A DNA stretch of 47,284 nucleotides, taken from the IMG/VR virus record IMGVR_UViG_2718218305_000010; one strand, 5' to 3'. Origin of the DNA: a virus. Its lineage: Duplodnaviria > Heunggongvirae > Uroviricota > Caudoviricetes. The position numbers are program-made. Positions 24,001 to 30,000 of the stretch are shown here, piece after piece (positions within the stretch are counted from its first letter, which is position 1; the number at the start of each line of letters is the position of its first letter).

Positions 24001-27000
24001 TTTCCGGTTGCCGGACGCGGCAGAAAACGGGCGGTCGTAAGATTTAATGGTCCGGATGGTGCATTCCGCATTCGCGGGCACGGTGACGGCAGACACCTCC
24101 ATCAGTTCCCAGCGCAGAAAATGCAGTCCGCCTCCGTCCAGAAAGGTGTATTCATGGGGACGGAAGCCCACGGACAGCCCCCTGACCAGCCCGGTCTTAA
24201 TGGCCGCCCAGACCTCATCCAGCCGGGCAGCCAGTTGCGACGGCATATCCGGTACGGGCTTCACCAGTGTTGCCGTGATTTCCAGCCCTTCGCTGACCCG
24301 GCGCACCGTACACTGCCCCACCGGGCGGGAATGGTCATGCTGCCAGAGAAACGGGATCGCACTGCCAAACTCCGCGCCCTCCGGCTCCAGGATGTCACCA
24401 TCCCGATCCGGAGAAGGCGTTGACGCAATCCCGGTGATCACCCGTTCATCCTCACTGAAGGATTTCACCGTCAGCAGGGAACAGGCCCGTTTAAGAGTCA
24501 CATCAGCCTCCTGAAAATAAAAAAACCGCCGCAGCGGTTCATGATGGTTACAGTGTGAACAGGGTTATATGAAAAAAACCGCATATTCTTTCTTTTTCGG
24601 TTCCGGGTTAAGGGACATCAGGGAGACCGCATTGAACAGCGCCATCAGCGGGTCAATTTTTCCCCGTCCACTGGCCTGTTTGGTGATAAGAATGGCGTTA
24701 CCTTTAGGCTCCACCCGGGCATTGCCGACACACCAGGCCATCAGGGGCTGGTCACCATGCACCAGCACCCCTTCAGCCAGTTTGCGCTCGGTGGTTTTAA
24801 TGGCCCCGCCCAGTTTCCAGCCCTGGCTTATCCCCACCACAATTCCGTCGGGGATCCCGGCTTCCGCCAGTGAATCCAGAATCTGCCCCACCCCTGACGG
24901 GTCAATACCGATATGGTCCAGTAACTCAGCCTCATGAATGCGACGCACATATTCCGCCACTTCCGCCGTGTCATCCCCGACACGCCGGACAATGGTCATA
25001 TCTCCACAGGCAACAAGATCCTGAAACCGGGACGCCTCGCTCTTCCGTCGGACCACCGCGGTTTCATGCGCCCAGGCATGGCCCCAGCCCAGCCATTCGC
25101 GGGTTTCCCTGTCACGGCCAGTCACGTACATTCCCAGCAGATCATCCAGGCCCCCGCCGTCAATCCCCACCGTCACCACATCAGCGCGCTGCAGGATATC
25201 GTCCAGGCTGACGCGCCTGCCCTGCTGCTCCCAGAAATCCGCACCCGCCCAGCGGTCAGAACGCAGGGCAAGACCAATTTCCACATTGGCATGTTTTGAC
25301 ATGAAGCCACGAAATGCTTCCTCACCAGCCTCCCGGGCTTTACGGTACTCCCGGTACAGAAAAGCCTCATCCACCGAATAACCGAGATTCGGGTTAACCA
25401 TGGCGAGGTTTTCCATCAGCAGGTGAGCCCCGCTTTCCACCATTTCAGGAGGATGCTCAAAAATCACCGGCAGAAAGTGCGGATCATGAATTTTGCCGTC
25501 ACGGACATCCCGGGCGTACTGCAGTTTCTGTCTGAACACCCCGGCTGGCGGCTCATTCGACTGGGTGGTCGTATACACCACAAACCCTTCCGGGCGGGAG
25601 GCAAGGCCGCCTATGGCTTCACGTAACATGTCCTCCGCTTTGTACTGCTTGCCAAATAACCACAGTTCATCAATCAGCGTCCCCACGGACTTGATACCGG
25701 ATACCGTATTCGGATCGGCAGCCACCACCTTCAGGGTGGTGTCCGTCACCCTGTGGGTGATGGTCCGGATATGTGTCTGCACCTGACAGAGGTCATCCAG
25801 ATCATCGTCCCGTCGTACCATATCCCTGGCAGGGTTGAAGGCGTTAGCCGCCACCTCCACGGTCGGGGCCAGAATGGTGTAGCCCGCCGCCTGCCGCCAG
25901 TTCAGTAACAGCGCCGTCATCATGATCCCGGCAGCCAGCGTGGACTTGCTGTTTTTCTTGGGGATAAGGATAAAAACTTCCTTGATATGGCGTACACCGG
26001 TCTGCGCATCGTAGGAGCCAAACAGGGCCGCCACCAGGTCAAACACCCACTGTGCGCAGGACTCCCCGAACGTCGGGCTGCCCGGTGCATCCACAATCCG
26101 CAGTTGTTTAAAAATCGCCAGGGCATGTGCGGCCTGCTCCGGATAAATCGGAGCCGGAATAATCGACAGCCCCTTTTTCAGGCGCTCTGCCCAGTCCGGG
26201 CAGGCCGTGCTCCACACAGGTATCATCCGTTGCCCTCATTATCATTATTCACCACCAGGCGGGGTGGTGGTGGCACCGCAAAACGGTTAGCCGCTTTTTT
26301 CGCCGCGTCACCTTTTGCCGATTTTTTACCGGCATCCCCTTTTTTGTGGTGCGTGAACTGCGCCAGCTTATAAGCCGCATCCAGCGCCAGCCTGGGGTCG
26401 GTATTAATGTTCTCCACCAGAAGACGCCCCATCGCTTTCACCGGATCGGGAAGACCGTCCTCCATATACTCAATACCAGGAGATATCACCACGGGCGGTG
26501 GCATCTCCGGATTTGTTTCGTCCGGCTGTGGTATTGCAGCCGCCTCACGGCGACGGGGTTTATCCTCCGGCTCTGATTTTTTCTGCCGATAAACAGGAAC
26601 CTCATCCACCTCCACCGTCTCGCACTGTTTACGGGCTATAAACGCAAGCACCTCCGGATCTTTTGCCAGCTGCGAGCCTTTAACCCTGGCTGTCTTCGCC
26701 GAATAACCGGCGGCAAGGGCTGACGCTGTTTTGTTTTTCCCGGACATGAGCGCCAGCGCAAATTTTCGTTTTTGCGTTGTCAGCACAGCCTCCTCCCGGG
26801 TCCAGAACGCACTCAGCCGGGTATGGTTCAGCCCATTTTTCCCGGCGTCTCATGCCGCAAATGTTAACTGCTGCCTGGTTAACATTTGCTGAAAAAGCCT
26901 GTTAACATTTTTTCCGCACAACAAACTGAATAATAAAGATAAAAACCGCAAAAATGCCCGGGCAGCCAGTTAACATGTTAACTGCCCTGAAACGGGAATT

Positions 27001-30000
27001 TTTTCTCTGCGTGAGAGGGGGCGCGGTGTCCAGGGCGATCGTTTTTTTTCGCCGGATGATCCCCCCCGGGTCTGGTCACAGGCCAGTGATTCCGTCGGCC
27101 CTGAGCGTGCCATCAGGAAGCTCAGGCAACGTCGGATCAGGCATACCACTCGCCGCTTCACTCGCTGACTTCTGGCGATGGCATTCAGTACAGAGGGTCC
27201 AGAGGTTCGTCTCCTCATTACCACCACCGAACTGAAGTGCAATGCGGTGATCGAGTTCACTGTCACAAAGGTCAACCACGCGTCTACAGAGACAACAGTG
27301 TCCGGCATCCCTCCGCCAGATACGACGTTTGAGGGAAACCCGGGCACTGCCACTGACACGACGCTGTTCCCCCCTCAGGACATTTATCCGCCGGGTGTTC
27401 AGAGTTTTGATTCTGCCCGGTAACGTACGAAGCACAGCCATGTAAAATCCTCGCCATATAGCTTGTCACCAGAGGAAAGAAAATGTCATCGAAAAACCGG
27501 CCCCGCAGAACCACAATCCGCAATATCCGTTTCCCCAATCACATGATTGAACAGATCAATATCGCCCTTGAACATAAAGGTTCCGGTAACTTTTCAGCGT
27601 GGGTTATTGAAGCCTGCAGAAGAAGGCTGTCAACAGAGCGTTCGGGTATGAATTACATAATTAAGTAACATGGTGTTCACAGAACACACAGTTACCGGAC
27701 ACATCAGTTTTCCATTCGTCCCCCGGCAGTACAGGCTTCCCGTCTGACGGGATAGCCTGAAAAAACACAGAAAATTATTTGTTATAATTAATATAACTTA
27801 CTCAAAAAAAAGCGACGAGAAAATCAGCATCAACGAGCAATAAGCGCCAATACGTGATAACAAATGGCAGCCATATTTATCTGCAGTATAAGCAATGGAC
27901 AGGATAACCACACCAGAAACCGTCAGCATAAAATCCATTTGAACTTCCCCGGACAAAATCGACTCATCTAAAGATTTACAGCTCTTTTTATTATCAATAT
28001 GTTAAAAGTAAAATAAACAGATGTTCAATAATACGAATACAAAAACGTGCTGAAAATCAATGAATCCATTTCTGTGTTATCAATTAATAGTGATAAACAT
28101 CCGGCTTCTTCCACCATCGCACCGGACCAGCGACCATGAGGGGACAACGCCGCGCTCCGTTAACGCGGTAAACCCCGGTGTGTATCGTTTTTGATTATCC
28201 CCGCACACTCGCGCAGAGGATTCTCCCGGTCGGGCTGCGGTCTCTGTTAATGCAGGAATACGGCGACAATACCGCGCATGAATAATAAGGTCGCTCAACA
28301 CACTGGCTGTAATGCAGCGGATACCATGCGGCATTTAGCGGCATTCATCGTACACTCAACGGTTAGCTCTTCATTCGTGGCATTCACCTGAAAGGTCCTG
28401 GAGTGTAATTGCGTACATTTACCACTGAACGAACCTTCAACAAGAACACGACCACGCTGCAAAATACGGAACGGAATTGTTCCCTGAAAAGGCTTTACGG
28501 TTACCAATAATTTCTTCATGCATTCTCCGAATAACAAAAATACTAGTTAATACACTGAGTGCGGATATATTCCTGAAGCATTCTCAATGCTGCCTGGTCG
28601 CTGATGATTCCGTCTCTGATACCGAGAACGTTTCGTCCAGCAACCGGAGAGAGTTCGACGGCGGCATCATTGCCCACGCCGGAGGTGCCGGTGGCTTCAC
28701 GCACGGTACCGGGGCAGGTGGCGTTGATCCGCAGGCGCTTACGACCAGCGGCAACATCAGCACGCAGAGTTTCATTTTCAGCTCTCGCATCGGCTAATTC
28801 CCTCGAGTATTTTGCATCGAGCGCAGCAACATCACGCTGGCGCACCTGCATGTCAGTAATGGTGGCATTCGCCTGTTCCAGCTCTCTGGCTTTTTTATCG
28901 CGCTGCGCTTTGTAGGTGAGCGCGTTGTCACGGTAATGGTTTGTTGCCAGCCACAGCGCACCACAGCCAACCGCCATGACAATAATCACCACACACAGAA
29001 CACGGTTCATCTCTCTTTCACCCCACCAGTCCCGATAACGTCAGGACTCGCCAGGCGGTGGAAAAGAAAATGGCAACCAGCATGACTAAAAATGAAATGC
29101 CGACAAGTACACAGAGGCTCTTCACCAGCGTTATGAGTTTATCTGATATCATTAGCCACCCCATCAATCCGCCTTTGTTATTTTCCCTTTGCCTGTATCA
29201 GCCAGGACAAAATCAATCAGCATATTCGCTTCATTTACCAGCGTACGGATTTTTGATACATGCGCGGCTTTAACCTGTTTCCACTCATTCAGCCCGGTAG
29301 CAAACACACTGGCAATGTTTTTATCCCGTTTCATGTCAGCACAAGCCTGGTTGAGTTCTTCCATCACGCTCATTTTACGGGGATTAACGACAAAACCCTT
29401 CGTCCAGTACTCGTAAAGAACATCGTCGCACTCTTCCTGATACCGGATGACCTTATCGCGGATTTCGGGTTTTACTTTGTTGGGATTAATGGTTTGTAGC
29501 CAGCCGGCAAGTTTTCGAAGTGGCATGGACACCATATTGCGTTGTTTCCCATCCTCAGCAACCATAACGATTTCCGTTATAGTTGACGCAAAACGCTGTC
29601 TTAACTTAGCCAACTGTGATTGCCAGGCCAGCCCCATCCCCGCAACGACAGGTTTCATGGGAACGTATGGTTCGCCATTATGGTTAACTACATAAAGAGA
29701 GTTGCCGTGAAACGGCACGGCCATCATATTCATCGGTTATTTCCTTTTAGTGATGAACCTTGTCTCACAGGAATCCAGCCCACAGAAAGGCACCGACAGC
29801 CAAACCGGTATCCTCAAGGGTCATCCTGAAAGGTTCTGTGTTGTGAGATGCGCGTGAGATGCGCAGAAATGACAAAGGCATCATTACGGTGCCTGAGTGT
29901 TAAACAACTGTTTTGACTTTATTCACTTACATTTTGCCAATTTGCAGGATTTCGTGTTATCCGTCCATGTAAGCAAACCGCATTTTTCAGCAAAATATTC

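Follow-up and report, generated by a model that had tools for sequence, protein, structure and literature searches.

The 289-nt spacer between the genes for an HNH endonuclease and the small terminase subunit (TerS) in IMG/VR virus record IMGVR_UViG_2718218305_000010, a 47,284-base stretch of DNA referred to here as the window, is probably a cohesive-end (cos) site of the HK97-like, HNH-dependent kind. It appears to comprise two modules, one for cleavage and one for recognition, the latter made up of five GTTAACAT half-sites that would be read by an SF6-type TerS. Judged from its sequence, the window is an Escherichia coli O157 lambdoid prophage of the Shiga toxin (Stx) type, whose packaging genes run along the minus strand in the order HNH, spacer, TerS, large terminase subunit (TerL), prohead protease–capsid fusion and portal. 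An earlier note on this DNA had singled out a cluster of five GTTAAC(AT) elements as candidate cos or terminase-binding sites, and its placing of them between the HNH and TerS genes is borne out by Pfam matches to HNH and Terminase_2, both genes being on the minus strand. The two halves of our assignment carry different weights: the spacer is very probably the cos region, and the repeats are probably TerS-binding sites in a cosB-like array.

The cluster itself is real. Five of the 14 copies of GTTAAC in the window lie within 120 bp (26863–26982; starts at 26863, 26878, 26901, 26969 and 26977), leaving nine for the remaining 47 kb, and when the 289-bp spacer was shuffled 200,000 times with its dinucleotides preserved, four or more copies never arose and three arose once. 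The longer form, GTTAACAT or its reverse complement ATGTTAAC, is found five times in the array and once elsewhere, against 1.35 expected in the whole window; none of 100 shuffles reached six copies, and ATGTTAAC is the sole 8-mer of the window with at least four copies inside any 130 bp. The elements stand in both orientations, as had been claimed: sites 4 and 5 overlap as half-sites of a perfect 18-bp palindrome, and sites 1 and 2 form a perfect inverted repeat with 12-nt arms. The lone other GTTAACAT of the window (37841–37848) is isolated, and we assume it to be a chance occurrence.

Where the DNA is cut can be predicted from a relative with mapped ends. Phage Lys8385Vzw (MT225100), an induced Stx1a-converting phage, shares with the window 93% identity in this region, the five repeats and the gene order; the retrieved part of its description (PMC7946995) reports a PhageTerm assignment to the cos class, with 10-nt 3′ cohesive ends CGCCCCCCCT at the genome end. 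That part of the text gives the 10-mer and makes no mention of repeats or of a terminase-binding region. The deposited record ends in ...gacaccgccccccct and starts with ctcacgcagagaaaaaattcccgtttcagggcagttaacatgttaac (ctcacgcagag), directly after the 10-mer. Its homologue in the window, CGCGCCCCCT, differs by one substitution and marks 27016–27025 as the predicted cohesive-end site. The repeats, lying 33–159 nt from this position on the terS side, are therefore not the cut site: relative to it the palindromic pair spans +33 to +50, the single site lies at about +108 and the inverted pair at about +127 to +159. All five half-sites, in both orientations, fall between predicted cut and terS, as expected of a lambda-type cosB. 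The mapped ends of Lys8385Vzw support the HNH–terminase spacer as the place of the packaging site, and the GTTAAC(AT) elements keep their proposed place within the cos region; the predicted cleavage belongs not to them but to the G-rich stretch (27017–27021, within AGGGGGCGCG at 27016–27025), which the earlier note had correctly recorded together with a T-run (T8 on the plus strand, 27042–27049).

The surroundings of the predicted cut change little between lineages. In every relative and satellite examined a run of seven to ten G residues occupies the corresponding position, and HK97 has a G8 run there (L177:380-390). The cut-proximal ~20 nt (CTCAYGCAGAGAAAAAA) are near-identical in all phage motif types and in one satellite-like island (L091), and looser in another (L089); sequence divergence begins beyond about +18 to +33 from the cut. 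The length of the G-run differs between close relatives.

The array is conserved at its motif positions. A scan of genome contigs found relatives with a TerS alignment as query and none with a single TerS. Among 70 distinct close relatives compared from cut to terS, variation affects one of 38 motif columns (a singleton) and 51 of 191 other columns (Fisher p = 0.0005), and within the array region alone 26 of 108 other columns (p = 0.003); as the 70 sequences are related to each other, this test is supportive, not decisive. The leader (26787..26856) differs between lineages and the repeats stay the same. In diverged E. coli phages (TerS 66–80% identity) alignment finds the five-site layout at homologous positions, with GTTAAC replaced, lineage by lineage, by GTTTAC or GTTTAT, or by GTTAACCACC (Table 1). 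Homologous phages thus do not lack the motif, an outcome in favour of the earlier note: they have it, or a concerted variant, at the same positions. Site 3 (26901..26908) changes along with the rest, to ATGTTAACCACC for type ii and ATGTTTAT for type iii, both arms of the inverted repeat in L086 and L093 are altered symmetrically to ATGTTTAC-N9-GTAAACAT, and one and the same A-to-T change marks all type iii copies, the unpaired single site included, which drift would not produce. Phages of types i–iii all live in E. coli, so the altered motif cannot be put down to a host factor, and a phage-encoded reader must co-evolve with the sites. IMG/VR yielded no loci exactly of type ii or type iii, so these two types rest on few contigs (L086, L093, L094 and L095).

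Table 1. Repeat types, the predicted TerS recognition helix (residues 32–40) and the content of the DNA upstream of terS
Type	Loci	Palindrome	Single site	Inverted pair	TerS helix	Upstream of terS
i	window, L084, L087	CAGTTAACATGTTAACTG	ATGTTAAC	ATGTTAAC-N9-GTTAACAT	TARVKGSQL	median 5 GTTAAC (101 distinct loci)
ii	L095	GGTGGTTAACATGTTAACCACC	ATGTTAACCACC	GTGTTAAC-N9-GTTAACAT, plus a sixth copy	TARVKGSRL	6 GTTAAC
iii	L093, L094, L086	TATAAACATGTTTATA	ATGTTTATACCC	ATGTTTAC-N9-GTAAACAT	SARCKGSQL	0 GTTAAC
Distant relatives					SARSKGSQL	GTAAACATGTTAAC
Satellites					TARVKGWQL	GTTACAC repeats

The terS product is the candidate reader. Its residues 2–57 match Pfam Terminase_2 (E 4.5e-8, above the gathering score), and an AlphaFold model gives a four-helix N-domain (predicted local distance difference test, pLDDT, 93–96) in which helix 33–41 is the predicted recognition helix. 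Foldseek pairs this N-domain with the SF6 G1P DNA-binding domain (2CMP and 4ZC3; template modelling (TM) score 0.81–0.82, root mean squared deviation (RMSD) 1.6–2.4 Å, 27–28% identity). The predicted recognition helix carries its own substitution in each motif type (Table 1). A study of PaP3 proposed that adjacent helix-turn-helix (HTH) motifs of the TerS ring read repeated sub-sites (PMC7672466), an arrangement that fits the paired half-sites described here. In one TerS variant, from Escherichia albertii (P0001), the linker that joins the DNA-binding domain to the C-terminal part contains 15 residues duplicated in tandem (approximately EDKPRRREAAAIPQP, twice).

We propose a mechanism in which the two modules are read by different proteins. 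The cleavage module would consist of the G-run, a further ~45 nt and the 10-nt 3′ cohesive-end sequence (27025..27016), read and cut at cosN by TerL (nuclease/ATPase) with HNH. The HTH N-domains of an oligomeric TerS, encoded just downstream, would dock on the five half-sites, and the AT-rich spacer, probably bent (it has T-tracts and a sequence resembling an integration host factor (IHF) site), may let the DNA bend or wrap. Held on the array, TerS would position TerL and HNH at the conserved core for a staggered cut at 27016–27025, conferring specificity on packaging in the manner of lambda cosB with gpNu1, and packaging would then proceed toward terS. TerS as the binder, the geometry of binding and any role of IHF or bending are what we infer.

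Two kinds of small E. coli island contain a TerS relative, one of the integrase–primase–TerS–capsid-like arrangement (L180) and the other pairing AlpA with TerS, and both appear to be satellites of this family of phages. HNH and TerL genes were not found in the satellite-like islands examined. Upstream of terS the islands have a G-run and the cut-site core, followed by two to five copies of AAAGTTACAC in place of GTTAACAT. Satellite L091 and phage L095 are near-identical between the G-run and about +18 and diverge exactly where the arrays begin; their TerS proteins (P0053 and P0032, respectively) share 91% identity over the C-terminal 69 residues and 52% over the N-terminal DNA-binding domain. 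This mosaic indicates that the cleavage module is separable from a recognition module of DNA-binding domain plus repeats. By keeping a helper-type cut site and TerS C-terminal part alongside their own DNA-binding domain and AAAGTTACAC repeats, the islands might divert helper TerL and HNH to satellite DNA. We tentatively suggest, as a possibility rather than an expectation, that specificity resides in an exchangeable cassette, made up of the array and the DNA-binding domain of TerS, set upon a common cleavage module (G-run and cosN, read by TerL/HNH), and that the islands exploit this arrangement. In the literature searched we found no description of TerS-based cos redirection in Gram-negative satellites.

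Further features of the islands were noted. Those at L180:3446-11944 (E. coli GCA_012987925.1), L089–L092 and L341–L350 lie between a yejM-like gene and narP/ccm, and their order is integrase, small open reading frames (ORFs), an AAA_25 primase, the G-run and cosN-like core with AAAGTTACAC repeats, the TerS relative, at 46% identity, and a capsid-like gene of 307 aa. A type i prophage is also present in three of the ten IMG/VR genomes with an island TerS.

Several points weigh against the reading of the array by TerS. It comes from comparison, and the mapped cos ends are those of another phage, the relative Lys8385Vzw, assigned by software (PhageTerm) only. Independent motif and helix types are few, about five lineages, and because terS is physically linked to the array their co-variation could partly be co-inheritance. 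The sites are spaced 8, 68, 23 and 15 bp centre to centre, without clear helical phasing, and since HK97 TerS needs one 15-bp site, a five-site array is not required by such a machine. HNH also diverges between motif types (79–89% identity), so for the phages alone it is a possible reader. Finally, the symmetric arm changes of L086 and L093 would also preserve a hairpin or cruciform.

The first of the alternatives is that the repeats bind another phage protein in place of TerS, be it HNH, TerL or a small DNA-binding protein such as the DUF3950 product; we consider this unlikely. Both HNH and TerL, linked as they are to the array, likewise differ from type to type (HNH 79% identity in type iii against 87–89% in type i), but Pfam recognises no sequence-specific HTH domain in either, and the satellites maintain their own arrays and their own TerS without HNH or TerL. 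The DUF3950 product has a ribbon-helix-helix-like sequence and is encoded 400 bp away, yet its identity is 91% in type iii locus L093, above the 85% in one type i locus, and no match to it was found in the ~1.2–2 kb upstream flank of L094 and of distant relatives, which keep the motif.

Read as nucleic-acid structures in place of protein-binding sites, the inverted repeats would form either a late-mRNA hairpin upstream of terS, controlling translation or the processing or stability of the message, or a cruciform in the DNA. The inverted pair does supply a perfect 12-bp stem closed by a 9-nt loop, and as single-stranded DNA its hairpin is calculated at −11 kcal/mol (z = −5.6), but the account is decidedly improbable: the unpaired single site alters in concert with the paired ones, conservation of stem pairing does not extend beyond the 9–10-nt motif (L084 and L095 are examples), the whole spacer folded as leader RNA has no significant excess of stability (z = −1.4), and the satellite repeats are direct, not inverted.

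Distant relatives bear on the origin of the array and so on a third alternative. These (TerS 33–48% identity) are phages and prophages of Kluyvera, Erwinia, Serratia, Pantoea and Citrobacter, with Salmonella phage FSL SP-016; they have no array, and terS starts 49 nt after the predicted cut. The first codons of their terS (ATG TTA AC) and a preceding GTAAAC form a near-palindrome, GTAAACATGTTAAC, overlapping the start codon, and it is to this Shine–Dalgarno spacer and start codon that the 18-bp palindrome of the window corresponds in position. Across 20 such relatives GTWAACAT is almost confined to the vicinity of cos (−73, −6 and 0 from the terS start), and the motif is nearly absent from the other ~4 kb of each locus. 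The window retains the ancestral ATGTTAAC (26976..26969) without a Shine–Dalgarno sequence, and its real terS start, GTGCTGAC, lies 190 nt further on; the Stx-phage lineage accordingly gained an insert of ~180 bp with three more copies of a pre-existing cos motif. It is very unlikely, in our judgement, that the repeats are non-functional relics of this separation of terS from cos, left by fold-back or duplication of the ancestral start-codon ATGTTAAC as ~180 bp were inserted. The start of terS at ATGTTAAC in distant relatives, the stranded copy in the window and the extended imperfect palindrome around the 18-bp palindrome would all suit such an origin; against it, motif columns are far more conserved than spacer columns in the 70 close relatives, other lineages show a concerted change of every copy, not expected from drift, and five to six copies with different flanks do not amount to a simple duplication.

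Two observations touch on the form of the ancestral site. The 18-bp palindrome is nested in an imperfect palindrome of ~54 bp (26948–27005; outer arms AAAAATTCCCG / CGGGCATTTTT), and the reverse complement of the cos core, ATGTTAACTGCCCTGAAACGGGAATT, matches the terS 5′ coding sequence of distant relatives at 21 of 26 positions; together they suggest that the ancestral terS start region was itself part of a symmetric element. Many distant relatives (L004, L005, L007, L008, L010, L011, L013, L017 and L096) have a third GTAAACAT at −73 relative to the start of terS, which places it left of the predicted cut.

A service to host factors or transcription (IHF, Fis, CRP, a promoter, or HpaI or methylase targets) is scarcely credible, because type iii phages of the same host species keep the layout with zero GTTAAC, the sigma-70-like TTAACA-18-TAACAT on the plus strand, built from two repeat copies, is antisense to the late operon and an automatic consequence of the repeat sequence, and the IHF-like ATTCAGTTTGTTG in the AT-rich spacer (26931..26919; one mismatch to WATCARNNNNTTR) is weak, 93 such matches occurring in the window against 73 expected. 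A role for HpaI, whose recognition site is GTTAAC, or for methylation was rejected because type iii phages are without any copy of that sequence.

With TerS retained as the probable reader, Table 2 sets out the elements of the spacer and the adjoining packaging genes.

Table 2. Features of the predicted cos region and its flanking genes (window coordinates)
Feature	Position	Strand	Details
HNH endonuclease gene, first of packaging block	27076..27441	-	121 aa; Pfam HNH, E 5e-6
G7 run (C7 on plus strand)	27061..27067	-	45 nt before predicted cut; candidate cosQ-like or HNH/TerL-side element
A8 run (T-run on plus strand)	27042..27049	-	lineage-specific; distant relatives have GTAAACAT here instead
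Predicted cosN, 10-nt 3′ cohesive end CGCGCCCCCT	27016..27025	-	homologous to Lys8385Vzw CGCCCCCCCT; predicted nick on sense strand between 27016/27015
Conserved right-hand core CTCACGCAGAGAAAAAATTCCCG...	26985..27015	-	A6 tract 27004..26999, +12 to +17 from cut
Perfect 18-bp palindrome CAGTTAACATGTTAACTG (sites 4 and 5)	26967..26984	.	two overlapping GTTAACAT half-sites
AT-rich spacer with T-tracts	26911..26966	-	retained in motif types ii and iii
Single ATGTTAAC (site 3)	26901..26908	-	
12-nt perfect inverted repeat GCAAATGTTAAC-N9-GTTAACATTTGC (sites 1 and 2)	26857..26889	.	
Leader with Shine–Dalgarno GGGAGGAGG (26797..26789)	26787..26856	-	less conserved
terS, proposed repeat reader	26223..26786	-	187 aa, GTG start; Pfam Terminase_2
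terL	24565..26226	-	553 aa; Pfam TerL_ATPase and TerL_nuclease

The region is widespread in E. coli. Positions 26700–27200 are 100% identical to Stx2a_WGPS6, and many Stx1a- and Stx2c-converting phages have 93% identity to the window over the same interval; a match to the window is present in 1279 of 5426 complete E. coli genomes, at up to seven copies per genome and 3002 places in all. This packaging type is carried by Stx1a-, Stx2c- and some Stx2a-converting phages. Phage and E. coli records that match label the HNH ORF product either HNH endonuclease or DNase. Directly after TerL the head genes follow in an unusual order (19773–24501, minus strand), a 645-aa prohead protease–major capsid fusion preceding an 859-aa portal protein; the Pfam portal domain covers only residues 54–382 of the latter, which points to a long C-terminal extension. 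Just upstream of HNH and antisense to the late operon is the DUF3950 ORF (27483–27668, plus strand; 61 aa, ribbon-helix-helix-like), kept in several relatives and showing no co-variation with repeat type. The DUF3950 product was rejected as a repeat reader because it does not track motif type.

That cos sites can contain repeated small-terminase sites is known already. For the cos site of this Stx-type phage group, the sole published statement found, in sources retrieved in part, is the 10-nt overhang, and the literature searched appears to contain no description of an HNH-dependent 3′-cos system in which a Terminase_2 TerS has a modular array of several sites. A recognition array of this kind would give a testable basis for asking which DNA is packaged and whether prophages and satellites in one cell share terminase or compete for it, and for specificity evolution through paired changes in recognition helix and sites.

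Among known systems, phage lambda has a cos organized as cosQ-cosN-cosB, in which gpNu1 and IHF bind the R3-I1-R2-R1 sites. The window has the same succession of (predicted) cut site, (candidate) small-terminase sites in both orientations, AT-rich spacer, here with a weak IHF-like match, and small-terminase gene, and, as proposed here, the same functional split into cleavage and specificity modules. It differs in that its TerS is a Pfam Terminase_2 protein with an SF6-like HTH, not the winged helix of Nu1, in having an HNH partner, and in a repeat that is an 8-mer half-site, including a perfect palindrome; lambda ends have a 12-nt 5′ overhang, those of the window a predicted 10-nt 3′ overhang, going by the mapping in the retrieved text on Lys8385Vzw. 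With SPP1/SF6 G1P, TerS has in common the fold and family of the N-terminal DNA-binding domain. G1P contacts several repeated boxes, and SPP1 and SF6 package by headful (pac) without an HNH partner; by contrast, the window encodes HNH and its close relative has cos cohesive ends, according to the part of its description retrieved.

The islands were compared with Staphylococcus aureus pathogenicity island (SaPI) TerS-S, the cos-type SaPIbov5 (Ccm), Rpp of E. coli phage-inducible chromosomal islands (PICIs) and capsid-forming PICIs (cf-PICIs). L180 and L091 follow the same logic as SaPI TerS-S and SaPIbov5, in the summary given by the cf-PICI preprint, combining a helper-like cut site with their own TerS and a capsid-like gene. 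They are distinct from the element in the window; unlike cf-PICIs they are without HNH and TerL, and their repeats are AAAGTTACAC.

HK97 (gp1, gp2 and gp74) shares the skeleton of the site, as the comparison suggested in the earlier note brings out: a G-run, ACCGC at −12, a 10-nt 3′ overhang (PMC11331095 for HK97; predicted for the window) and terS inside the left end. In both, the HNH gene lies upstream of cos and an A-tract falls just inside the left end; the HK97 G8 run stands 43 nt before the right end where the window has G7 at 45 nt, and ACCGCC at −12 corresponds to ACCGCG. The HNH gene of the window ends 289 nt from terS with terL next, as in HK97-like HNH-dependent cos phages, and TerL is related to gp2 (23% identity, E 4e-11 by BLASTP); BLASTP detected no similarity between TerS and gp1 or between HNH and gp74. 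HK97 TerS binds a single 15-bp site at +15 to +29 (PMC11331095), and HK97 terS begins 49 nt from the cut (nt 50), whereas the window has a ~125-bp five-site array (+33 to +159) and a terS 230 nt from the predicted cut. The window thus offers a natural contrast to HK97, with cutting machinery of the same kind, a different TerS family and several sites against one.

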